Below, piece after piece: positions 44,747-61,195 of a DNA stretch of 64,000 nt. A program made the translations under genes and the position numbers. The notes below the pieces were generated by a model that ran no database searches, was not told where the DNA came from, and worked only from the letters and a program-made list of their open reading frames with translations. The stretch is from contig JBCCEA010000002.1 in the NCBI GenBank assembly GCA_039030515.1, positions 128,001-192,000 of the forward strand, given 5' to 3'. Numbering within the stretch: the first letter of the stretch is position 1; every line of letters starts with the position of its first letter. This DNA is from Myxococcota bacterium (GTDB lineage Bacteria; Myxococcota_A; Polyangia; Polyangiales; Houyiibacteriaceae).

Positions 44747-45352
44747 TCAAACCATCGCCTCCATGTAGGGCTTCATGAGCCGATACACTCGGTCGGCCTT
44801 TGCAGCCTCAAGCAGTTCATCCACGGTACCCACGCGTTTTCCGAGGTAGTCGCGAAGCGCCTGAAGCGCGACCTCAAGACCCACATGACGACGGTACCGA
44901 AAACAGTCAGCCACCGTCTTCGTAGGTGTCGTAAGCTTCACGGTCACGCCGTCGATCTCTCGCTCGACCACACCGTAAGTCCAAGCAGCACCACTGGCGC
45001 GAACTATCTCAAGCTTTGGAGAGTTGACTTTAGGCGTCCACGACGACTTCGCGATCATAACCCACACAGCATGCGGAAGCTCCGTGGTCAGCTCATGGGC
45101 CTGGAGCGCACTCAGCAGACAGATCACACCATGCGGAACGCGAACCGCGACCTGGGCAAGGGTGTGCAGCTCTGACACGTCCTGACCAGCCAGCTGATAG
45201 AGCCCACGGTCGACTTGCTCAAGCTCCCCGCGATCACACAGTCGCTTCAGGTATACGCGAGGGATTCCCGCAACAGCGAGATCACGAGGGCGAATGGGCC
45301 GAGCTGATGCCAACCTGAGAAGTCGGACTCTATGGGTCTCTTCGCTGCTCAT
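44747..45352 (-). CDS. AbiEi-family antitoxin (orphan; cognate toxin deleted)
   Basis: RGLY.L, VP.GVICLLSAL..HELTT..P..VW..I, KTVADCFRYR..VGLEVA..AL, MKPYMEA. Confidence 0.9.
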   Translation of the reverse strand: MSSEETHRVRLLRLASARPIRPRDLAVAGIPRVYLKRLCDRGELEQVDRGLYQLAGQDVSELHTLAQVAVRVPHGVICLLSALQAHELTTELPHAVWVMIAKSSWTPKVNSPKLEIVRASGAAWTYGVVEREIDGVTVKLTTPTKTVADCFRYRRHVGLEVALQALRDYLGKRVGTVDELLEAAKADRVYRLMKPYMEAMV

Positions 45353-45363
45353 GATACATATCC

Positions 45364-45380
45364 TTATTCGTCACGAATAA
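45364..45380. promoter_or_regulatory. Perfect palindrome TTATTCGT-C-ACGAATAA, probable operator
   Basis: AT-rich, 12 bp upstream of the AbiEi start; weaker outer arms tacatatcc/ggattttgta. Confidence 0.55.
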
Positions 45381-45810
45381 TAGTATGGATTTTGTAACAC
45401 ACTGCGAGTATTTGTACTTCCCCACAGACAGCTTAGGGTGCCTAACGATTCCAGACATCGCTGGAGCCGCCGAGAGCGAGGACGATGGTAGGGCGACATT
45501 CTTCGCCTATCCGAAGTGGTTTGATAGCCATATCCAGCCGCAGTTCGGAAAGCGTCACTACACGCTCACTGGACAAGGACGAACCCGCACGACGATTTCG
45601 GTCCTTTCGCTACCGAACCTTGAACTCGTGGTCCCGTTCACGTCGCGTGGTGGGCAAGGCGGAACACCTCGACAAGGGAAGCAATCCTCGCTTTGTTGTC
45701 ACCTCGCTCCGCTCCCCTCCCTTAGGCCGCACGACTCCATCTCGACGTAGATGCAGGGACCGCTTGGCCCGCTTCCGTACCATCAACCCTGACGTCGTGA
45801 CGGATCCGGG

Positions 45811-46194
45811 CTAAGGAGCGTCTACGAAGAGGGGGAACTCGACCCTGAAGCAACTGTTCGGAAATACCGAATAGTTCGAACCGAATGAAATCGTTTGGTT
45901 TCTCGCCTTATCGACCACTACAGCCTGCCTGCGATTCTAGCCGTGGGGTACCGGTTGCGCTCAGACCAAGGCACCCGTTTTCGGCAGTGGGCGACAGCAC
46001 GCCTAGACGAGTTCTTGGTCAAAGGCTTTTTGCTCGACGACAAACGTCTCAAGTCCGGCGAGAACCTTGGCGAGGACTACTTCGACGAACTTCTTGAACG
46101 CATCCGTGACATCCGCAAAGCAGACATCGCGGTGGCGAAGAACTACCTGAGCAAAGAAGAACTCAGTGAGTTGACTCGAAGGCGCACTCATTGA
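45811..46194 (+). pseudogene. RhuM-family (virulence RhuM) pseudogene
   Basis: VYEEGEL..EATVRKYRIVRTE, in-frame TGA at 45886, YSL.AILAVGYR..S..GT.FRQWAT..L.EFLVKGF..DD.RLK, DYFDELLERIRDIR joined directly to KAD..VAKNYL. Confidence 0.85.
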
Positions 46195-47723
46195 CGCCTC
46201 CAAAAACCAGGCATAAACAGGGCCGTAAGCGTGAAGAACTCAAGACGACCGAGGATCATGACAAAAGAGAAAAAGAGCTTCGATAGCTTGGAATAGCCGG
46301 CAAAATTATCTTCCATACCGGCGAGCTCGTGAAACGGAGCCGGTCCCATATTCGACAAACAGCTGAGCAGAGCGCCAAACGCTGCCGGCAGTGGAACGGT
46401 GTTTCCTTCAAAAGCCGGCACGAGAAACAGACCGAGGACGAGAGAAGAGACGAAGAGCACGCCAAAGGCACTGACGTCCGCGACCACCTCGGGATCGATC
46501 ACCTGTTTGCCGAGCCGAATCAAGCGGACCACCGTCGGCCGATAGGTCTTACTTATCTGAGCGCCAGCCTGTTTGGCCAAAATGATCGTTCTTTCGATCT
46601 TAAATCCACCCGCAGTGGACCCCGAGCAGCCGCCGACGATCATCAGTAAAATCACGCAGGCAAGCCCAAAAGCCGGATACTGCGCATAGTCGTCCGTAGC
46701 GAATCCCGTTGAAGAAACCGTCGTCGCCACCATGAAGAATGCGTGTCGAAAACTGGTTTCGAGCGATCGATCTCCGGCGGAGATGACGACTACAAAGAGC
46801 GCCAGAGTAAAAATCAACACACCAGAAGCAAATACGCGAAACTCCAAAGACCGAGCGAAGTGGCGCAGTGTCCGCTGCCGCAATGCTAGGTAGTAGAGAT
46901 TGTAGTTAACCGTGCCGATGAGCATGAAGAGCGCAATCGCATATTGCACGGAAGCATCAAAATGACCGATCGACTCCGAATGGGTGGAAAACCCGCCTGT
47001 CGACATCGTCGTCAACGCATGGCAGACGGCGTCGAAAAGCGAGACGCCAAGCAGACAGAGCAGCAGCACCTCTAGCGAGGTCAGCAACAAGTAAATGCGC
47101 CAGAGCGCCCCTGCGGTTTCAGCGATCCGCGGACGCAACCCCTCGGAAACCGCTCCGGGAACTTCTCCCTTGAACATCTGTTTTGCCGAAACACCCATAT
47201 TGGGAAAGATCGCGACAAAGAGGACGACGATACCCATGCCGCCGAGCCACTGCAGAAACGAGCGCCATAGGAGGATCGGTCGACTGAGGCCTTCAAGGTC
47301 GACAATGACGGTGGCGCCCGTGGTCGTTAGCCCGCTCACCGATTCAAAAACCGCGTCGACAAGCGACATCTCGGCCCCAAACACAAACGGTAGCGAACCG
47401 CAAAAACCCGTCATCGTCCAAACGAGACCGACCGAAAGGATGGCCTCACGACGCGTCAACTTCAGGCGGGCATGGCGCCGTCCAAAAGCCACCCCGAACA
47501 GACCCAGGCCGAGCGTCAGAGCCGAGGCGAAAAACAGGCCGCCGGCGCCGCCAAGTCCGGGTCTCAGATAGGCTCCTTCAAAAGCGGCTCCGAACAAGCC
47601 GCACAGTCCGATAGAGGCACCGAACCCGACGAGAACCACCCCGACGGGTCGCAATACAGCCCGAAAGTCGCGCACGGCTCCTTTGTGTCGGACAGCCCGC
47701 GAACGCGACGCACGCGCAGTCAT
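46188..47723 (-). CDS. trkH: Trk potassium uptake membrane protein
   Basis: FESVSGLTTTGAT, QWLGGMGI, STGGF, GGCSGSTAGG.K, GRLE; start at ATG 47723 (MTARAS). Confidence 0.95.
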   Translation of the reverse strand: MTARASRSRAVRHKGAVRDFRAVLRPVGVVLVGFGASIGLCGLFGAAFEGAYLRPGLGGAGGLFFASALTLGLGLFGVAFGRRHARLKLTRREAILSVGLVWTMTGFCGSLPFVFGAEMSLVDAVFESVSGLTTTGATVIVDLEGLSRPILLWRSFLQWLGGMGIVVLFVAIFPNMGVSAKQMFKGEVPGAVSEGLRPRIAETAGALWRIYLLLTSLEVLLLCLLGVSLFDAVCHALTTMSTGGFSTHSESIGHFDASVQYAIALFMLIGTVNYNLYYLALRQRTLRHFARSLEFRVFASGVLIFTLALFVVVISAGDRSLETSFRHAFFMVATTVSSTGFATDDYAQYPAFGLACVILLMIVGGCSGSTAGGFKIERTIILAKQAGAQISKTYRPTVVRLIRLGKQVIDPEVVADVSAFGVLFVSSLVLGLFLVPAFEGNTVPLPAAFGALLSCLSNMGPAPFHELAGMEDNFAGYSKLSKLFFSFVMILGRLEFFTLTALFMPGFWRRQ

Positions 47724-52807: not shown

Positions 52808-54265
52808 ATGCCCATCTTTGAATTCCGTCTTCCGGATATCGGCGAAGGAGTCGCTGAGGGGGAAATCGTTCAATGGAACGTCTCGGTGGGAGACGTCGTA
52901 AACGAAGACGACCCGATGGTCGAAGTGATGACCGATAAGGCCACCGTGAACATCGGAGCCCCAAAGGCGGGTAGAATCCAAGAGCTTCGCTTCGGCGTAG
53001 GTGAAGTCGCCCAAGTTGGACAGGTGATCGTAGTCATCGCGCTTGAGGCCTCGACTGCTGAGGGAGCATCTGCCGCGCAGAATCCGCCCACCAAAGCCGA
53101 AGAGCCGAGGGCGCAAGAATCTGCGGATGACGAGGGACCCGCGGCGACCGCAGTCGGCGACATCCGCGAAGGGCTGCCCGGTTCTCAGTATTTTTCCGGA
53201 GCGCAGGACGCTTTGGGTGCGTCAGGCGGGGCACTAGCCTCGGCACCAAGCCATCCCGTGTACGTACAAAGCGTTCCTCTAGCGACTCCAGCCACCCGAA
53301 GATTGGCTCGCAACCTCGGGATCGAGCTCCGATGCGTGACCCCCAGCGGTCCGGGTGGTCGCACCACCAAGAGCGACGTCTATCGATACCGAGAAGCATT
53401 TCTGGAATCTACTGCAGGCGAGTCCGCTACCGCAGAAACAAGAGCCGTTTTCGCCAGTGGAACCGAACGCACCCGCGAAACAGACGGTCATGTTTCAGGC
53501 TCATACCCTGCTGCACCATCGCGTGACGCTGCATCGGGTCAGTTCCCGCATGCAGCGGGCAGCGCTCGGGAAGTGCGCAAGCCGTTCGTGGGACTCCGCA
53601 GAAAAATCGCCGATCGAATGCAACATTCGAAGAACACGGCTGCACACTTCACCTTCGTCGAGGAGTGCCACGTAGACCGATTGGTTGAACTACGCCAAAG
53701 GCTCCGGCCCGCGGCGGAAAAAGAGGGAGTTCGGCTCAACTACCTGCCCTTCATCGCCAAAGCGGTCTGCATTTCCCTCAAGCGGCATCCGATCCTCAAT
53801 GCGCGTCTCGATGAGACTTTAGGCGAGTTGGTGCTGCCCGACTACGTGCACCTCGGAATCGCCACCGCAACCCAAAACGGCCTCATCGTGCCGGTGATTC
53901 GTGAAGCGCAGTCGATGAGCATTATCGAACTGGCTAAGGAGATCGAGCAGCGTTCCGAACGAGCGCGTTCTGGGGGTCTTCGTCCTGAGGAGCTCACTGG
54001 ATCGACCTTCACGCTCACCAGCCTTGGGAAACAAGGTGGACTTTTCGCCACTCCCGTACTGAACTTTCCGGAAGTTGGTATTCTCGGAATCCATCAGTTG
54101 AAGCAACGGCCGGTCGTGCGTGATGGCGAAATCGTCGTCGGGCAGGTGATGCTGCTCTCGCTCTCTTTAGACCACCGCATTGTCGACGGACACGTCGGTG
54201 CCGCGTTCGCTTATGACCTGATCAAACTGCTCGAAGAACCCGAGCGCATGTACTTGGCCCTGTAG
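52808..54265 (+). CDS. 2-oxoacid dehydrogenase E2 dihydrolipoamide acyltransferase (called pdhC below for brevity)
   Basis: Lipoyl domain (LPDIGEGV.EGEI, VMTDKAT), E3-binding ATPATRRLA, catalytic DHRIVDG. Confidence 0.95.
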   Translation: MPIFEFRLPDIGEGVAEGEIVQWNVSVGDVVNEDDPMVEVMTDKATVNIGAPKAGRIQELRFGVGEVAQVGQVIVVIALEASTAEGASAAQNPPTKAEEPRAQESADDEGPAATAVGDIREGLPGSQYFSGAQDALGASGGALASAPSHPVYVQSVPLATPATRRLARNLGIELRCVTPSGPGGRTTKSDVYRYREAFLESTAGESATAETRAVFASGTERTRETDGHVSGSYPAAPSRDAASGQFPHAAGSAREVRKPFVGLRRKIADRMQHSKNTAAHFTFVEECHVDRLVELRQRLRPAAEKEGVRLNYLPFIAKAVCISLKRHPILNARLDETLGELVLPDYVHLGIATATQNGLIVPVIREAQSMSIIELAKEIEQRSERARSGGLRPEELTGSTFTLTSLGKQGGLFATPVLNFPEVGILGIHQLKQRPVVRDGEIVVGQVMLLSLSLDHRIVDGHVGAAFAYDLIKLLEEPERMYLAL

Positions 54266-54393
54266 CGATTTAGTATAGCGACTAAAGATGCGCGAAACCG
54301 GCAGCTATCGAGCGACGCAAACAAAACAGAGGTCCGTAAGAGATAGCGCTTACTCCAGTCAAAGAGCGCGGACGTGGGCTCGGTCGCGAAGTT

Positions 54394-56103
54394 TCACTTT
54401 AGAGTTAACCGGCAGCGCGTCATCTTCAGTCCGCCCCTCATCCAAAAGTCTACTTGGTAGGTGGCCGAGTGACGTGTCTTGTGATGACCCATCCCAAAGA
54501 CGACCAGTTTCCGGACGGACAGCCCTCCACGAAACTCGGTCGTTTGATAAAAAAACAGGGTGAAGCGACCGGGTGTCGTTCGATGATAGACAGCGGCGGA
54601 TGCAGGAATTTCTTTTTGTACCTCCGGCGGTAGTGTTGAGCGGTCCGTACGTCTGGCCTTCTCTACTCGGCTGACATGGTGATTCATCGCGTCTTTGGTC
54701 TTCAACGCAGCATAAATCCTTGCGCAGACTTGCCAGAAACCATCTAATTCATTACCCCAAGAGACCTCGCACTGCATGGCTGCGGCAGTCCGTGACGCAG
54801 AGCTGCCGGATTCTGGCAAGGGTACGACACGCCGCCGAGGTGGTGGTGCTTGCTTCGGCCTTAAGTCGTTCTTCTTAGCTCGAGTCGTCGGTGCACGCGC
54901 TGGACTGATTGAGTTGAGGAACTTCGGGTCAGAGATGTGTGTGGTTGCTGCCTCCACCATCTTTGGATCGTAGTCGCCGCGTCGGACCGCAGAAAACGCA
55001 TTTGCGCTGCATGACCACGCCACAATGCCTGAATTCTAGTCGCTGCGTTGGGTCGGTAGTTTTGTTTTGCTTCTTGCGAAAGACGCGCTCGATGTTTGTC
55101 GAGCTCAGGCAGCACTGTCGCCCGGGCTGTGCGACCACGATACCGGGTCTGAATTGCGGTGACGGCCTCGATACGCCCTTTTAATTTGGACTCCAAAAGC
55201 GTTAGGTCACTCGATACTTGGTAGAGATCATTATTGCATGTCTCTAAATCTTTGATCAGAACTTGAACCGATTCATATCTTTTATCGAAGTGTCCGGCTA
55301 CTGCATCTATGGGTTGATGTGAAATATCATTTTTGCACTCGCAACGGTCTAGCACAGTGTTCCACACCTTCACCAAGGCACAGAAAAGATTTTCGATAAT
55401 GAACAATTCTTGGTTCAGGGTATTCTTCCATTGCATCGCCATCTCAGAGATACTTTCAATAACATCCTTGGCATCAGAATCTAAATCGAAATTAATTCGT
55501 GATCGCAACAAACCAACTCTAGTTTCTATTAATTCTATAAACTCCAAGTTCGAAAAGTCTGCCAAAAGAAGCTCTTCAAGAGCTATTTGACATCGACGAA
55601 AGGAAACCTCGATCGCGAGAATTTTATTTTTTAAGGAGTCAGTGATTTTGCTGCTTTCATAATTACACATATATAGCCAGAGCCTAAAGCAACAACCTTG
55701 AGCCGATATCAACTCCTCGATATCTACTTCCCAACCATCATTCCATTGTTTGACTGCAAAATTAAATCGTTTGATAGCCTCTACAATCTGATTGTGCAGA
55801 GAACCCGCGCTCCCAGCGGGCGGTCCTTTGTCTAGGATCTTGGATATCGAATCACTAACGCATCTCAAGTAATAGTCACACGTGGCAAGAACCAGCCCAC
55901 TCCAATTTCGTCTAGCCAAGCAATACGCTTGAAATAAATGGAATTCTTGAAAAGAGCAGCATTTATCCTGGGGGGTATCGGGTAGATCTATCGGTCGCGC
56001 TCGGGAAGCGATCTGGGCTTGAGCCTTGAGCAAAGACTGGCCAAGTGGTGTCTTCCGGAACTTGACTGGACGCTGGCCTCGAGGTTCCTTTTTTTTTAGG
56101 CAA
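54394..56103 (-). pseudogene. IQ-motif protein paralogue 1, frameshifted (split across ORFs 54861-56180 and 54394-55023)
   Basis: Colinear with paralogues 2 and 3; IQTRYRGRTAR, IQALWRGHAAQ, IQRWWR; 1-nt deletion ~54929; homologous TTG start at 56103 out of frame across an A9 tract. Confidence 0.75.
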
Positions 56104-56321
56104 GACTTAAGGCTAGCACGCCCAAACACGGGGCGCTGTCTGATGAAGTCTCTCCGTGTGATGGAACCTCGGGCAACCAAAAATCGGATTCACGAATAAC
56201 ACGCTCACCATATGATTTTGTATACACTTAGATGTGCTGCGAAACAAAATAGGAGGCTATAAAAACAGTGCCTACGCCAGCCAAAGAGCATTGGTGTTGA
56301 TATAGGCATGGTAGCGAGATT

Positions 56322-58058
56322 TTAGTTCAGAGTTACCCTGCACCTTGTCCACTTACAACTGCACTTAATCCAAAAGTCTACTCGATAGGTGGCAGAATCC
56401 CCTGTCTTGTGACGACCTAGCCCAAAGACAACTGATTTCTTGACAGGTCGGCCTTCGCGGGATTCGTTCGTTTGATAGAAAAACAGGGTAAAGCGACCGG
56501 ATATGGTTCGATGGTACACGGTGGCCGCTACAGGAATCTCAGCTCGTACATCGTTTGGTAGTATGGAGCGATCCGTATATTTGACCTGTTGTGGTCTAGT
56601 GACAAGGTCACTCATCCCATCTTTGGTTCTCCTACCAACATGGAATTGTACGTGGTCCTTCCAGAACCTATCCGATGCATCACCCCAACGAACCTCATAT
56701 TGCATGGCTGAGGCAGGCAATGGCGCGGAGCTGCGGGATGCTGACGAGAGCACGGCAGGCCGTCGAGGTGGTGATTTACTCTTCCGCTTTGAAGATAGTG
56801 TCTTAGGGCGAGTCGTCGGTGCATGAGCGGGCTCGATTGGCTTGGGTAACGTCGGGCGGATAGAGGTGCCTGGTTTCTGCATCCAACATCTTTGGATCGT
56901 AGTCGCCGCCGCGACGGACCGCAGAAGATGCTTTTGCGCTGCATGGCCACGCCATAACGTCTGAATTCTAGTCGCCCCGTTGGACTGTATTGCTTCTCGC
57001 TGAAGACGCGCTCGAAGTTCGTCGAGCTCGGGCTTCACTGTCGCCCGGGCTACGCAACCACGCCGCCGGGTCTGAATTGCAGTAGCGGCTTCGATACGCT
57101 TATTTGAATCGATAAGCGCTAACGTTCCGTTCGTAGAGATGACAGATAGCCTTTCATTGCGACGCCAGTTACCGTCAATCGCAAAAACAATTCTTTCTTT
57201 TTTCTCTTTATAATACTGAACATATCGCTCTTTTTGCTCATCATAGATGAGCCTTGTTTTCTCGCAAGAAGCCAACATAAAGTTCCATATTTTTATGGAT
57301 GAAATAAAATCTTCTTTGATAGTAAAAAAATCATCGCTAAGTACTTTTTCCCAACCCTCCAATAAATGATGTCCGCTTTCTACTTCAGACATGCAACCAC
57401 GGCCAAGATAGCTATTATTCTGATCAACATACAAGCGTGCCTTATCTATTGTCGATTTCATACACGCACATAGCGAACAGTTCGATAAAAGAAGTTCTTC
57501 AGAAGCCACCTGACATTGCCTAAAGAAATTCTCCATCGTTTGAAGTTTCTCCAGTGTGAGGGCCGCGTTCTCATTGCGCTGGAGCGCATGCATAAAAAAA
57601 TTGAGGCTGAAGCAATGGTGTTGGGCCGATATTAATTCACCAATATCAGGGTCCCACTCATCATTCAGTTGTTTGACTACGAGATTAAATTGCGCAAGCG
57701 CCTTATTGATTCGGTCAATTAGAGACTGCATTCTTTGAACGATAACAGAGCCTAACTCACTCTCGACATGCGGTTTTTTGTGTAACATCTGGCCTATCCA
57801 TGTAGCAGCACCTTCCAGATAGCGGTCGCATATTGAGATAACCCGCCGGCTCCAATCCATTCTCGCCGAGTGATATTCCGGAAATGTAGAGAAATCCTCA
57901 AAGTCGCAGTTCATCGCCTCAGATATACTGCTTGAATCTTTTGGTCGAACTCTTTGACCTATACGGTCTTGAGCTACGGACAAAGCTTTGCCGTATTGTG
58001 TCTTCTTGAGTGGTGGAGAGACTGGTCGTCTGCCGGTTTTACCCGTTCCTTTAGGCAA
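56322..58058 (-). CDS. IQ-motif protein paralogue 2 (helical domain + IQ repeats + conserved C-terminal domain)
   Basis: IQTRRRGCVAR, IQTLWRGHAAQ, IQRCW; TTG-CCT-AAA at 58058 aligns with ATG-CCT-AAA of paralogue 3 (ORF open to 58169). Confidence 0.8.
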   Translation of the reverse strand: MPKGTGKTGRRPVSPPLKKTQYGKALSVAQDRIGQRVRPKDSSSISEAMNCDFEDFSTFPEYHSARMDWSRRVISICDRYLEGAATWIGQMLHKKPHVESELGSVIVQRMQSLIDRINKALAQFNLVVKQLNDEWDPDIGELISAQHHCFSLNFFMHALQRNENAALTLEKLQTMENFFRQCQVASEELLLSNCSLCACMKSTIDKARLYVDQNNSYLGRGCMSEVESGHHLLEGWEKVLSDDFFTIKEDFISSIKIWNFMLASCEKTRLIYDEQKERYVQYYKEKKERIVFAIDGNWRRNERLSVISTNGTLALIDSNKRIEAATAIQTRRRGCVARATVKPELDELRARLQREAIQSNGATRIQTLWRGHAAQKHLLRSVAAATTIQRCWMQKPGTSIRPTLPKPIEPAHAPTTRPKTLSSKRKSKSPPRRPAVLSSASRSSAPLPASAMQYEVRWGDASDRFWKDHVQFHVGRRTKDGMSDLVTRPQQVKYTDRSILPNDVRAEIPVAATVYHRTISGRFTLFFYQTNESREGRPVKKSVVFGLGRHKTGDSATYRVDFWIKCSCKWTRCRVTLN

Positions 58059-58239
58059 GACGTAAAACTCCCTTACAGCAACACTTAAAGCTAGCACGTC
58101 CAAGCGCGGGGCGCGGTTTGGTGAAATCCCTCGATATGGTGGATGCTCAAGCGACCAAAACTTGCGCAAATTCCCAAGTGCCCGTATCGACGGCTACGCG
58201 GTTCTGCCGTAGCCGCTTCCTAAGCCATGCAGGTGTTCC

Positions 58240-58420
58240 ATGCCTTTAAGATTAGACGCCATCGGCGCGACTACCGAACCTCTGGTTCACGAATACAGGG
58301 CTCGCGATACAATTTTGTATGCGCTTGGATGCGGCGCGAAGCAGACACGTCGGTGCTGCGTTCGCCTATGACCTGATCAAACTGCTCGAAGAACCCGAGC
58401 GCACATACTTGGCCCTCTAG
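58240..58420 (+). pseudogene. Chimeric fragment: maoC 5' end (58240-58345) fused to E2/pdhC 3' end (58346-58420)
   Basis: Near-identical to 60359-60464 and 54191-54265 respectively. Confidence 0.95.
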
Positions 58421-58541
58421 CGATTCACCGTGCTCAAAACGGGCAACCGTAGAGCAAGGCAAACAAAACGCAGTTTTCTAGAAGTGAGTGCCTACGCCAG
58501 CCAAAGAGCATCGACGTCGATGTAGGCGTGGTCGAAAAGTT

Positions 58542-60197
58542 TCAAATTAGGGAAACGTTATTCCGACGTATCCTAAGTCCGCCATTGCTCCAGAAGTTCA
58601 TTCGATAGCTCTTCGAACTACGTGTCTTGTGGCGACCTATCCCGAAGACAACCAGTCTCTGGACTGACCCCGCCGTCTGACGCCCATTCGGATAAAAAAA
58701 TACGGTGAAGCTATGGGGTATGGTTCGATGGTACACGGTGGCCGCTTTAGGAATCTCTCCTCGTACCACTTCCGGTAGGATCGAACGATTTGTTACTTTG
58801 GCTGCGGATAGGCGCCGGATAGAGTCATTGATCGCCTCTTTTGTTTGTTTCCCGCCAACATACCGACGGGCGCTAATCTCCCAGAAAACGTCAAACTCGT
58901 CACCCCAATGAACCTCAGGTAGATTTTTTGATTCGTGCGTTGATATCGGTTGCTTGGGGAATACATCATAAGGGATTGCCCGTTTGCCGGTCGTTTTCTG
59001 CCTAGGTGGTTTAGTTGCCCTCGGATTTGGTCGCGTCAACCGAACAGGACCTGCTCGAAGGCGAGGTACTCTCAAAAGATTTGTCCTCGCTAGGCGACCA
59101 CGCCACCGTGCCTGAATCCTAGTCGCTGCTGCGTTCAGTGATGCAAGTTTTGCCTCGACCTTCAGCTCCTCTGCCCGAGCTGCGTAATCACGCCACTGGG
59201 TCTGAACGGTAGTAGCAGCAGCTTCGAGACGTCTTTTAACCATGATTTCGAGAGAGTGTATGTCACTAGAGACTTGATAAAATCCATCATTGCGTTCCAA
59301 TAGTTCGTCGACTCTACTCTGAATGGAATTATATTCACTAGTAAATTGTGGAATAACTGCTTCATCTAAGATTTTACCTAAACCATCAATTTTGCCGTCG
59401 CAAGCATTGAATATCTCTGACCAAGTTTCACTTAATAGAACACAAATTCCTTCGTAAAGCCTCAATCTTTCGAGACTACTACTCTCCCATCCCTCGGCAT
59501 GCGCTGACAACGCGTCTAACTGGTTTATGTAATGACCAGAAAAAAACGAACCAGTCTGTGAAAGCAACTCATGTAGTTTATTTTTTGTCCGCGCTACAAA
59601 CGCAATTTGCGAGAATTCCCACAAAAAAAGATCGTCAAGCGCTACTTGACACTGGCTAAAATAGGATTCGGCGGTTTCGATTTTCTCCAGAAAAGGGTCA
59701 ATTTTTTGACTGTTCTCATAATTTTTCGATATAAAACAAAGACTGAAGCAGTGCACTTGAGTCGATATCAAATCCTCGATACAGACTTCTTGATATAGGT
59801 TCCAGTGTTTAACCACTTGATTAAATTGTTTGATATCATCTTTGATTCTATTACTTACAAGCACCGTTAATCGGTTGAAGGAAGAGATTGATTCTTCATT
59901 AGAAGTCGAAACTGTAGTCCTTAAAATCTCACTTAAGGATTTATTAGCGAGTTCAAAGTAATCGTTGCACTTACAGATAACCTTCCAGCTCCACCTCTGC
60001 CTGTCCGAGCGATAGTCCTCAAATGAAACGAGGTTATCAAAAAGATCGCGTTGGTGCGGGAGAGTATTAGGTAGATCTATCGGTCGCGCTCGGAAAGCGA
60101 TCTGGGCTTGAGCACGGCTCAAAGACTTGCCGTGGTCTGTCTTCCGGAACTCGATTTGATGCCGGCTTGATCGGCCTTTTTTTCCTCCTTTAGGCAT
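58542..60197 (-). CDS. IQ-motif protein paralogue 3
   Basis: MPKGGKKGR start; VQTQWRDYAAR, IQARWRGRLAR; shares ELISxQxxCF, CQVA and VYHRT/VVFGxGxHKT motifs with the other two. Confidence 0.8.
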   Translation of the reverse strand: MPKGGKKGRSSRHQIEFRKTDHGKSLSRAQAQIAFRARPIDLPNTLPHQRDLFDNLVSFEDYRSDRQRWSWKVICKCNDYFELANKSLSEILRTTVSTSNEESISSFNRLTVLVSNRIKDDIKQFNQVVKHWNLYQEVCIEDLISTQVHCFSLCFISKNYENSQKIDPFLEKIETAESYFSQCQVALDDLFLWEFSQIAFVARTKNKLHELLSQTGSFFSGHYINQLDALSAHAEGWESSSLERLRLYEGICVLLSETWSEIFNACDGKIDGLGKILDEAVIPQFTSEYNSIQSRVDELLERNDGFYQVSSDIHSLEIMVKRRLEAAATTVQTQWRDYAARAEELKVEAKLASLNAAATRIQARWRGRLARTNLLRVPRLRAGPVRLTRPNPRATKPPRQKTTGKRAIPYDVFPKQPISTHESKNLPEVHWGDEFDVFWEISARRYVGGKQTKEAINDSIRRLSAAKVTNRSILPEVVRGEIPKAATVYHRTIPHSFTVFFYPNGRQTAGSVQRLVVFGIGRHKTRSSKSYRMNFWSNGGLRIRRNNVSLI

Positions 60198-60306
60198 CAC
60201 GTAAAACTAGCACGTCCAAGCGCGGGGCGCGGTTTAGTGAAATCCCTCGATATTCTCAAGCGCCGAGCGACCAAAACTTGCGCGAATGTACAAGTGCCCG
60301 TATCGA

Positions 60307-60338
60307 CGGCTACGCGGTTCTGCCGTAGCCGCTTTTTC
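60307..60338 (+). terminator. Terminator-like hairpin upstream of maoC (duplicated at ~58191-58215)
   Basis: CGGCTACG-loop-CGTAGCCG followed by a T-tract. Confidence 0.35.
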
Positions 60339-60358
60339 CTAAGCCATGCAGGTGTTCC

Positions 60359-61195
60359 ATGCCTTTAAGATTAGACGCCATCGGCGCGACTACCGAACCT
60401 CTGGTTCACGAATACAGGGCTCGCGATACAATTTTGTATGCGCTTGGATGCGGTGCGAAACAGAGCGAGCTCGGCTATCTCTACGAGGGTATGGGGCCTC
60501 AGGTGCTGCCGACCTACGCCGTCGTGCCGGGTTTTGACGCTTGTTTCCGCTTGATGGATACACTTGGCGGGGATTTGACCGGGGTAGTGCACGGTGGACA
60601 GCGGGTAGAGTGGCATCATCCGGTTCCGCCCCAAGGTCGACTCTCGACCGTTGGGACCGTGGAAGGCCTATTCGACCTAAAGAGACTAGCCACCGCGGAC
60701 ATCAAGACCGAAACTCGTGATGATGCAGGAGTGCTTGTCGCTGAGACGCGCTGGCAGATTATTTTTCGACTCGACGGGGGCTTTGGCGGACCAAAACCAC
60801 CAAGGAAGCCGCGCATTCAATTGCCGGAGCGCAGTCCAGATTTTCGAGTTGAGGAAACAACCGCTCCAGAGCAAGCGCTTCTCTATCGCTTAAGTGGTGA
60901 CCACAACCCGCTGCACGCCGATCCAGAAGTGGCGCGCCTGGCCGGATTTGAAAAACCCATTCTGCATGGGCTTTGCACATATGGGTTTGTAGGGCGTGCC
61001 TTGATTCGAGAGGCCTGTAGCGGTGATCCCAGAAAGCTGCGCGCACTGGAGGGGCAATTTCGCGCACCGGTGTTTCCTGGCGACACTTTGGTGACAGAAG
61101 GCTGGGAAGTAGATAACCGATGGCTCATTCGCAGCACGACCAAAGAGCGACCTAATGAACACGCTTTTACCAATGCGTTCGCAGAATTGAGTTAG
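60359..61195 (+). CDS. MaoC-family (MFE-2 hydratase-2-like) enoyl-CoA hydratase
   Basis: ILYALG.G, VHG.Q, YRLSGD.NPLH.DP..A..AGF.KPILHGLCT. Confidence 0.92.
   Translation: MPLRLDAIGATTEPLVHEYRARDTILYALGCGAKQSELGYLYEGMGPQVLPTYAVVPGFDACFRLMDTLGGDLTGVVHGGQRVEWHHPVPPQGRLSTVGTVEGLFDLKRLATADIKTETRDDAGVLVAETRWQIIFRLDGGFGGPKPPRKPRIQLPERSPDFRVEETTAPEQALLYRLSGDHNPLHADPEVARLAGFEKPILHGLCTYGFVGRALIREACSGDPRKLRALEGQFRAPVFPGDTLVTEGWEVDNRWLIRSTTKERPNEHAFTNAFAELS

Follow-up and report, generated by a model that had tools for sequence, protein, structure and literature searches.

Proteins of the RelE fold are known almost solely as small intracellular toxins with paired antitoxins, and in one account (10.64898/2026.08.28.747851, section 14) RelE-like proteins are mostly intracellular toxins of toxin-antitoxin (TA) systems. 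Two such toxins, HigB and YafQ, have His/His-Tyr sites (PMC5027501). RelE also poisons yeast and human cells (PMC4773802), and another protein, Ribocin of P. aeruginosa, cleaves eukaryotic rRNA (PMC13189344).

A second group of bacterial proteins depends on calmodulin. An IQ helix mediates the activation of Legionella SidJ (PMC6858067), and calmodulin also activates Bordetella CyaA, anthrax edema factor and Chromobacterium CopC (PMC9239266). In the cited literature, calmodulin-dependent effectors are enzymes other than those of the RelE fold. An IQ-bearing, antitoxin-free RelE-fold family would unite both kinds and explain a translation toxin without immunity. The literature searched contains no description of the family reported here, nor one that joins an IQ motif, a bacterial ribonuclease toxin and calmodulin activation; calmodulin, ankyrin and Myxo are absent from the main text of the BECR preprint.

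The window is a 64,000-nucleotide stretch of DNA from a Myxococcota bacterium. An array of three colinear paralogues lies on its minus strand (54,290-60,300), flanked by ORFs that a preliminary description labelled E2 and maoC. That description gave the genes a size of 550-580 aa, which holds for copies 1 and 2 and not for copy 3. Two breaks disrupt the frame of copy 3, one at an A9 run (56089-56097) and one near 54930, and its C-terminal domain lies in a separate frame because of these interruptions. The genes and their parts are as follows.

58542..60197, minus strand: copy 1 (P0001), intact, 551 aa; basic N-terminus, all-helical domain, IQ helix, Pro/basic linker, predicted RelE-fold domain
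59250..60049, strand-neutral: AT-rich core of copy 1, GC 0.385 (800-nt window)
59175-59207, minus strand: IQ-like turn of copy 1
59085..59117, minus strand: canonical IQ motif of copy 1, residues 361-371 (Pfam IQ, 29.8 bits for the protein)
58542..58916, minus strand: C-terminal domain of copy 1, predicted RelE/ParE-type (BECR), with conserved H490, T492, H523 and Y531 (model pLDDT 90, VIA matches, conservation)
56322..58058, minus strand: copy 2 (P0002), intact, about 579 aa, start probably TTG
57100-57899 and 55200-55999: AT-rich cores of copies 2 and 3, GC 0.41 each (800-nt windows)
56934..57077, minus strand: IQ motifs of copy 2, at 57045-57077 and 56934-56966 (Pfam IQ, 19.5 bits, just below the cut-off)
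56322..56696, minus strand: C-terminal domain of copy 2, predicted RelE fold
54861..56103, minus strand: N-terminal part of copy 3, a helical domain and IQ motifs at 55122-55154, 55002-55034 and 54936-54968 (Pfam IQ, 28.1 bits)
54394..54930, minus strand: linker and C-terminal domain of copy 3 (54394-54768, predicted RelE fold), in a separate frame

The ORFs are free of introns, and the N-terminal parts of the three copies share 34-35% identity. The AT-rich cores noticed earlier are borne out: their GC is 0.41, 0.41 and 0.385, whereas the genome averages 0.575; windows of 800 nt equally low number 3, 5 and 1 out of 10,072. Counts of promoters and terminators were at chance level only, and no RNA data set containing the sequence was found.

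The array expanded through tandem duplication or unequal recombination at the slot between E2 and maoC, and strain alleles differ. The spacer between copies 1 and 2 contains a duplicate of the maoC 5' end fused to one of the E2 3' end. The traces of this history are listed here.

58344..58425, plus strand: duplicated E2 3' end, 94% identical to 54189-54270; one half of the junction (sequence comparison)
58217..58345, plus strand: duplicated upstream DNA and maoC 5' end, 98% identical to 60336-60464; other half of the junction (collapsed double depth)
56176..56246, plus strand: remnant of the maoC 5' end (72-75%), older and decayed, lying between copy 2 and copy 3
60207..60219, plus strand, also at 58091 and 56113: upstream flank motif
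58497, 56277 and 54355: downstream flank motif

Conserved flanks had been proposed for each copy, and both motifs are indeed found at three of three copies. They are pieces of duplicated DNA rather than a signature of the family: genome-wide the upstream motif occurs at these three copies only, and the downstream motif at these and one unrelated site. The flank motifs are thus relics of tandem duplication confined to the array. E2 and maoC were adjacent in none of 29 relatives (flanks of 1.5 kb, some shorter).

A contaminant or misassembled insert had been considered at the outset. Low-GC cores, a duplicated junction and a somewhat lower depth over the array in run X1 (15.6-17.3, against 22-24 in the flanks) could be taken as signs of an assembly artefact or of eukaryotic contamination. 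Contigs of this run, a possible source of the assembly, cover the array with 0 differences, except for 60321-60423, where no piece is listed. In run X2, made from a different sample of that study, identical pieces span all three copies, the A9 run included, and the junction shows the expected collapsed double depth. In addition, the ORFs lack introns, paralogues lie on 9 contigs among bacterial genes, and genome contamination is 0.11% (completeness 85%). An artefact is therefore largely refuted and has only a very small probability. The array is real.

A search of the genome for further paralogues, as had been suggested, found 18 copies of about 600 aa, 12 uninterrupted and 6 interrupted. Copies have been both gained and decayed, and the alleles of the array differ between samples. 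No members were found in the 87 other genomes of the taxonomic family or in 400 genomes of the phylum. A word-based search with copy 1 returned copies 1 and 2 only (2/8000 scored), a search with alignment A6 returned 3/7994, every one from the array's own genome, and a scan of JGI metagenomes gave 0/275 candidates. One full-length relative with the same layout is kept in another Myxococcota MAG. The C-terminal domain is also part of P0018 and P0028, giant proteins that combine ankyrin repeats with poly-Lys tracts, and is found as small stand-alone relatives in free-living marine bacteria. P0025 and P0033, candidate domain relatives, were discarded as repeat artefacts.

The C-terminal domain, present in each of the 18 members, is the conserved part of these proteins, and it is confidently predicted to have a RelE/ParE-type (BECR) RNase fold. 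Its AF2 model has a pLDDT of 90.2 and a pTM of 0.86. The DSSP order is E-H-H-(H)-E-E-E plus two extra strands, and it agrees with the BECR order (pre-beta, pre-alpha, alpha, antiparallel beta core). The best 16 of 48,161 chains in the VIA search are all RelE/ParE/HigB/YoeB/YafQ-type toxins (Z 6.5-4.8, rmsd 2.7-3.7, 72-91 residues aligned), the best being HigB2 (rmsd 3.7 over 88 residues); every fold Z lies below 8, in the range that the tool grades as "possibly a common arrangement". The top Foldseek match is YoeB/ParE (E 0.21), and the ESM Atlas result likewise points toward RelE/ParE-type toxins. The VIA matches also include Cami1 (Z 4.8), AVRA22 (Z 3.9) and restrictocin (Z 3.2). Sequence profiles gave less: Pfam and NCBIfam toxin models had 0 matches over cut-off in 25 domains (best ParE_toxin, E 0.13, in 1/25), PADLOC toxin models likewise had none, and the YafQ_toxin model had no match anywhere in the genome. 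The sole match in a PDB sequence search, a composite epimerase, was judged a chance one.

Four residues stand out among the 18 copies, namely H490 (17/18), T492 (17/18), H523 (16/18) and Y531 (17/18), although identity to copy 1 is only 15-46%. The single copy that lacks both His residues and the Tyr is itself a split gene. The His-x-Thr, His and Tyr may correspond to the sites of HigB and YafQ, an equivalence drawn from topology and not from superposition.

The family need not be toxic. Its members might bind RNA or have a regulatory role while having a RelE-like fold, or they might be accessory proteins that drift under weak selection; the IQ motif would then be a by-product of a long charged helix. 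This reading would suit the interruption of 6 of the 18 copies, dN/dS near 1 in the variable parts, a pN/pS of 0.8 in a natural allele, the small solo relatives without antitoxin and the modest fold scores. However, the His/Thr/His/Tyr set is kept at such low identity and is retained in distant relatives too, the C-terminal domain is under purifying selection (dN/dS 0.38-0.46), and an orthologue of the same layout persists in another MAG. A non-toxic family is accordingly improbable.

Evidence for a calmodulin-binding signature is provided by the middle of the proteins. The IQ strings of the preliminary description are present in the array copies, where two to three tandem IQs are carried by one long helix. 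Against a Pfam IQ (PF00612) gathering cut-off of 20.3, the profile recognizes copy 1 (29.8) and copy 3 (28.1), as had been expected, and falls short for copy 2 (19.5). Only 1/88 genomes of the taxonomic family has an IQ match over cut-off, namely the array's genome. In copy 1 the motif lies on a model helix of residues 273-372, and pLDDT drops to about 53-64 at the canonical motif. The IQ consensus of the literature occurs in 4/14 long family ORFs versus 14/1927 background ORFs, with a distant paralogue on contig C6 among the positives. An IQ core stands at the expected place in 7/13 long members, by a looser pattern picked after the family was seen. None is found in the C22/C6a clade or in the outside relative P0021; the IQ is absent from about half of the family. 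The genome (85% complete) has no EF-hand pair over cut-off. Strong EF-hand-pair matches occur in 11/151 genomes of the phylum, one of them a 147-aa protein with four EF-hands.

The N-terminal domain is all-helical, highly variable and barely alignable. It terminates in the long IQ-bearing helix, which is followed by a Pro-rich basic linker. A fold search with this domain, taken from the model of the longer protein, led to no fold assignment, with helical-bundle matches at Z of at most 9.9, where the bar of the tool is about 13, and scores in the Atlas search were 0.77 or lower. The array copies have neither a hydrophobic signal nor a clear transmembrane stretch. The family had been called diversifying, a term that gains no support from a dN/dS of 0.57-0.69 over long alignments. 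The sole window that would suggest positive selection (1.53) is unreliable, since identity there is only 15%. Nor did the idea of a polymorphic toxin system survive in its classic form: here the toxin-like end is the constant part and variation lies in the N-terminus, the reverse of the usual layout.

Such an architecture could also belong to a defence switch, for which the fused toxin-antitoxin CapRel is a model. The variable helical domain would restrain the RNase and free it on meeting a phage protein or stress, with the IQ either an amphipathic helix that arose by chance or a binder of bacterial EF-hands. A variable N-terminus, a conserved effector end and the lack of a partner gene suit a fused switch; the genome carries a prophage, RelE folds are used in defence (compare Cami1 above), and RelE-like folds are mainly intracellular (10.64898/2026.08.28.747851). 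Yet the neighbours of family members are housekeeping genes, not defence genes. PADLOC gave only four single weak ZorA/LeoA matches for 16 members, and PHROG no match for copies 1 and 2. The canonical IQ lies far above background, and the family is confined to one lineage. A sensor for defence is, on this balance, unlikely.

No recurring small partner, antitoxin or immunity ORF was found among the 156 ORFs flanking the 18 members, and the spacers of the array hold just short frames and gene relics. The earlier remark that no immunity or secretion gene adjoins the array thus stands. However, a solo relative in Thalassolituus maritimus, the only solo relative whose context was examined, has no antitoxin neighbour either, so an absent immunity gene alone is no sign of activation in a host.

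A type VI secretion system (T6SS) is encoded by tssA (weak), C, F, K, L and M on contig C32, tssE, F, G and hcp on C44 and vgrG on C47; tssB and clpV were not identified in the genome (85% complete). Such a system is found in only 9/88 genomes of the taxonomic family. Of the secretion systems proposed for a search, a T6SS was found and T3/T4 systems were not: the one FlhA/SctV in the genome is flagellar, and VirB4 was not found. No vgrG, PAAR, hcp or adaptor genes lie near the array or 15 other members, none of the members adjoins the T6SS genes, and the proteins have no identified secretion signal. The basic N-termini suggested cargo of an eCIS/PVC system, whose signals may be positively charged, a property not found in the PVC literature searched. 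This candidate was rejected: the tail cluster on contig C1 has head, portal and protease genes and is therefore a prophage and not a headless eCIS, and Pvc16_N was not found (genome 85% complete).

The T6SS, or contact, might instead serve to deliver antibacterial toxins in predation or kin discrimination, with autoinhibition or unlinked immunity protecting the producer. The presence of a T6SS in so few relatives favours this, as do the CdiA-CT, colicin D and YxiD tRNases further down the VIA list (Z 3.2-4.3) and the differences between alleles from sample to sample. Against it, there is no recurring immunity gene; Rhs, PAAR, VgrG and other trafficking domains are absent within the family proteins; the toxin end is conserved and not swapped; and an IQ has no obvious use in bacteria. 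Bacteria are thus doubtful targets.

Other markers concern eukaryotes. The genome has 52 matches to WD40 repeats, while none of 30 relatives exceeds 19. It has a single ankyrin ORF and a single F-box match, the latter below cut-off. DotH/IcmK, TLC nucleotide translocase and RING_2 have no match in the genome, though the same profiles have none in the controls.

Since about half of the full-length copies carry a eukaryote-type calmodulin-binding signature and no antidote gene is adjacent, the proteins are probably weapons aimed at a eukaryotic cell. The original proposal of effectors or toxins directed at eukaryotes gains from the toxin-type RNase fold, an IQ unique in 88 genomes, the T6SS and the many WD40 repeats; it loses from the absence of the IQ in about half of the family. 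More exactly, we would put at even chances that the array genes are lineage-specific RNase effectors delivered into a eukaryote, with the IQ binding host calmodulin.

The steps of this preferred model differ in strength. The C-terminal domain would quite likely cut RNA, probably ribosome-bound mRNA, rRNA or tRNA, and so block translation. The IQ helix of the three array copies is likely to bind apo-calmodulin or an EF-hand protein of the myosin-light-chain type. Delivery into a eukaryotic host or prey is somewhat favoured, and of injection systems the T6SS alone was found. More tentatively, calmodulin binding might act as a switch that frees the nuclease or brings it into position, in place of an immunity gene. 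A bolder form of this model is rather speculative: a marine myxobacterial lineage would have turned a RelE-type translation toxin into an injected anti-eukaryote arsenal of 18 paralogues, self-inhibited by the helical domain in the bacterium, activated in the target cell by calmodulin or a related EF-hand protein that clamps the IQ helix, and cutting host RNA.

If this bolder form is correct, it would be the first calmodulin-gated ribonuclease effector. Together with WD40, kinase and RING-like orphan families, it would identify its bearer as a marine myxobacterium living as a parasite or predator of eukaryotic cells. The family would also hint at a way of life involving eukaryotes that has gone unstudied in a marine myxobacterium with a small genome. 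Should the calmodulin part be wrong, the His-x-Thr/His/Tyr domain would still be a BECR-type family without a curated Pfam or NCBIfam model, known in three settings: solo, fused to ankyrin repeats and as an 18-copy expansion.

The array domain resembles the type II TA toxins HigB2, RelE, YoeB and YafQ in predicted fold and strand order. Its modelled arrangement of an inner-strand His, a second His beyond the final core strand and then a Tyr recalls HigB and YafQ. Unlike those toxins, it stands behind about 430 residues, has two extra C-terminal strands and 18 paralogues, and belongs to a family without an antitoxin gene or a family HMM match. As in SidJ, CyaA, edema factor and CopC, a bacterial IQ helix lies beside an enzyme domain with no EF-hand-pair partner found in the genome. 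Here, however, the enzyme is predicted to be of the RelE fold, neither a pseudokinase nor a cyclase nor an ADP-riboxanase; one helix carries two to three IQs in tandem, and no Dot/Icm or injectisome was found.

Like CdiA-CT, colicin D and YxiD, the proteins join a long N-terminal region to a C-terminal BECR domain, with strain-variable alleles at one locus. In contrast to those systems, the toxin end is constant and the N-terminus varied, and neither an immunity gene nor a recognisable trafficking domain is present. Ribocin differs in being small and RNase A-like, with a signal peptide, and in acting without an extra bacterial factor; the cited account describes no IQ module (PMC13189344). What the array shares with Ribocin, the fungal ribotoxins and the AVRA22-type effectors of powdery mildew is an RNase fold whose proposed place of action is a eukaryotic cell, carried by an expanded and fast-changing family.

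The interval between E2 and maoC (both named by inspection of the sequence) contains three colinear minus-strand paralogues, as the preliminary description stated. The features are as follows.

52808-54265: E2 ORF, one border of the array
60359-61195: maoC ORF, the other border
60197-58542, minus strand: copy 1 (protein P0001), intact, 551 aa
58058-56322, minus strand: copy 2 (P0002), intact, about 579 aa
Minus strand: copy 3, with two breaks, one at the A9 run 56089-56097 and one near 54930

The length of 550-580 aa assigned to all three thus holds for copies 1 and 2 but not for copy 3, whose two breaks place its last domain in another frame. The N-terminal parts are 34-35% identical. The cores, rightly described as AT-rich, are among the lowest-GC DNA of the genome (0.385-0.41 compared with 0.575; at most 5 of 10,072 windows are equally low). 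A further AT-shifted stretch at 44747-46200 carries short ORFs with a putative likeness to an AbiEi-type antitoxin, the remnant of a transposase and a RhuM-like virulence fragment.

The spacer between copies 1 and 2 contains the maoC 5' region again (98%), fused to a duplicate of the E2 3' end (94%), and between copies 2 and 3 lies a decayed maoC relic (72-75%). These pieces are duplication junctions. Despite them, the coding regions have a dS of about 0.8-1.2. This pattern could have arisen by unequal recombination among long-diverged alleles of the same slot from different strains, or by gene conversion of the flanks. The homologous flanks reported at each copy do exist at the array, and their motifs recur at only one unrelated site. 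They are not a family trait, since unlinked paralogues have no common upstream DNA.

The array is genuine. It is present in four marine metagenome runs (X1, X2 and X4 among them), all of one study. Contigs of X1, a possible source run, show no differences from it and have twice the depth over the duplicated piece of maoC; X2 has pieces identical to all three copies, the A9 run included. These matches argue against a contaminant or misassembled insert, and an artefact is very improbable.

X2 and X4 also carry diverged alleles: copy 2 has 54 differences in about 470 nt, copy 1 has 51 in about 465 nt, and 340 nt of the linker of copy 1 have 39 differences and 9 gap letters. For housekeeping pieces the counts in X4 are 26/409, 22/504 and 25/607. 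If all come from one strain, which the contigs cannot prove, the pieces of the array have diverged at about double the rate. Joints omitting 1956-2219 nt, or one repeat unit, occur in X2 and once in X4 (85% likeness); they may reflect variation in copy number, hybrid alleles or the presence of related organisms. Among 33 sites listed for an X4 allele (92 codons; the whole piece has 54 differences), 25 are non-synonymous and 8 synonymous, giving a pN/pS of 0.8. This indicates weak constraint and falls short of proven positive selection or of support for a "diversifying family".

Iterated HMM searches of the genome converged on a set of 18 ORFs, spread over 9 contigs, with the last 125 residues in common. 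Twelve are uninterrupted and at least 550 aa long; six are interrupted. They occur singly or in small clusters amid housekeeping genes and are prominent within the genome's lowest-GC long ORFs. In their common layout, a basic start (often MP-K/R) leads into a helical domain, which an IQ-like turn often follows; the shared domain comes last, after a Pro-rich basic linker. At one locus (L017, contig C19:69226-76333), two members alternate with two opposite-strand DUF7790 genes, a pairing absent at other members.

The shared domain was found in none of the 87 other genomes of the taxonomic family, nor in 400 phylum genomes (11 candidates scored per genome). With HMMER, a search of 1.84 billion representatives yielded 31 matches, of which 17 belong to this genome (P0001 and P0004, plus 15 that were confirmed), two were discarded as repeats and 12 remain. 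Among these 12, P0021, a protein of 660 aa encoded in a MAG labelled "Myxococcota bacterium", shares 31% identity with the C6a paralogue from end to end and clusters with it (support 99/99); the expansion is therefore older than that split. The remaining matches comprise nine proteins of 110-154 aa and a pair of giant ankyrin-repeat proteins from ENA, P0018 (2456 aa) and P0028 (1682 aa), with four and two copies of a related RNase-like domain; Lys-rich tracts come after the internal copies. The giants are an independent pairing of this domain with eukaryote-like repeats. The small stand-alone relatives (P0022-P0032; L072:4001-4450) come from Thalassolituus, Sinobacterium and metagenomes, and some bear an N-terminal CxxC zinc ribbon.

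An AlphaFold2 model of the shared domain from the 18-sequence alignment (pLDDT 90.2, pTM 0.86) was compared with 48,161 PDB representatives. The top 16 matches are all RelE, ParE, HigB, YoeB or YafQ-type toxins (Z 6.5-4.8), a homogeneous list even though every Z-score is below 8. The rmsd is 3.7 over 88 residues for HigB2 and 3.0 over 82 for RelE. Lower matches include Cami1, BrnT, CdiA-CT, colicin D and fungal RNases. Foldseek gave YoeB/ParE as its best match (E 0.21), and an Atlas search agrees with a RelE-type fold. Curated toxin HMMs did not match the family. Conserved residues are H490 (17/18), T492 (17/18), H523 (16/18) and Y531 (17/18), and none of the four varies in an alignment of 20 rows with the small relatives among them. 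PMC5027501 gives His54, Tyr91 and His92 as the HigB active site, and His50 and His87 for YafQ; the family's His/His/Tyr set would correspond to these. Weighed between this conservation and the weak constraint of the X4 allele, a non-toxic or drifting family is improbable.

IQ motifs had been claimed in all three copies. With Pfam IQ (cut-off 20.3), copies 1 (29.8) and 3 (28.1) score above the threshold and copy 2 (19.5) just under it; among the 88 family genomes, only this one has matches above it. A strict consensus, taken from PMC9239266, occurs in 4/14 long family ORFs compared with 14/1927 others. A looser core, picked after the family had been inspected, lies at the expected place in 7/13 compared with 35/877. 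About half of the family, and P0021, have no visible IQ, so calmodulin cannot be a universal switch. Outside the shared domain, the protein model (mean pLDDT 70.7, pTM 0.46) has helices, the last of them a 100-residue helix (273-372) bearing the IQs, and after it a disordered linker. Fold searches of the region before the shared domain returned no nameable fold. A fused sensor-toxin serving defence is rather unlikely.

The absence of a nearby immunity gene is borne out: no small partner recurs among the 156 ORFs flanking the 18 members. The genome encodes a T6SS, its genes spread over three contigs (L013-L014 on C32, L116 on C44, L123 on C47). They are accompanied by an IglE_N-domain gene, tssF is present twice, and the VgrG has an N-terminal extension that is long and repetitive; TssC is present in 9/88 family genomes. 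There is one flagellar export apparatus, with no second SctV and no VirB4 in the genome. A contractile-tail cluster considered as an eCIS is a myovirus-like prophage (C1:184500-212000; L124, L128; portal, head, sheath, tube and baseplate genes). With a T6SS on one side and no recurring partner on the other, an antibacterial toxin is an unlikely reading.

Other features touch on eukaryotic cells. WD40 repeats have 52 matches in this 4.1 Mb genome compared with 0-19 in 30 relatives (C6:112600-116200, C14, C52, C54, C55 and a tandem array at C46:17500-26200, L117), and a C25 ORF (L114) has a weak F-box-like match ahead of its WD40 repeats. There are several further orphan low-GC paralogue families. 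One has five ORFs (L115, C24:47076-55507, and C28:9221-10339) with Arg/Lys-rich, Pro-rich N-termini and no Pfam match in the four ORFs scanned; more orphan pairs lie on C25, C26, C33, C19 and C2 (tandem kinases). Bacteria that manipulate eukaryotic cells typically show such a pattern. The finding of a single ankyrin ORF counts against it, as does that of no nucleotide translocase in a search without a working control. No EF-hand pair scores above the cut-off in this genome, which is 85% complete, and 11/151 phylum genomes have strong matches. One of that phylum, G151, encodes a calmodulin-sized four-EF-hand protein (L102:1492-1932).

The most likely reading, held at about even confidence, is that the family consists of RNase effectors for a eukaryotic cell. 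Computation supports the fold, residues, motif, missing partners and expansion, whereas activity, binding, export and gating are predictions. The protein would probably be exported by the T6SS, its IQ helix would bind calmodulin, and its His/His/Tyr site would cut RNA. No antitoxin would be needed if the long N-terminal part, or a missing host factor, keeps the protein quiet. The weak points are the IQ motif missing in about half of the family, the lack of secretion genes linked to any member, and the solo relative of Thalassolituus maritimus, which has no antitoxin neighbour at its locus.

As precedents, SidJ binds calmodulin via an IQ helix and is thereby activated (PMC6858067), RelE is toxic to yeast and human cells (PMC4773802), and Ribocin is a bacterial RNase that cuts eukaryotic rRNA (PMC13189344). 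The topology of the modelled domain agrees with that of the RelE-like class described in a BECR preprint (10.64898/2026.08.28.747851), with two added strands; the supplements of that preprint may contain the domain. A literature search, with subscription journals mostly outside it, turned up neither this family nor any IQ-bearing RelE-fold protein. The family falls outside the type II TA systems and also outside the classic polymorphic toxin systems, contrary to the proposal of a polymorphic effector system. It would instead work like a cross between a calmodulin-dependent effector and a BECR RNase.
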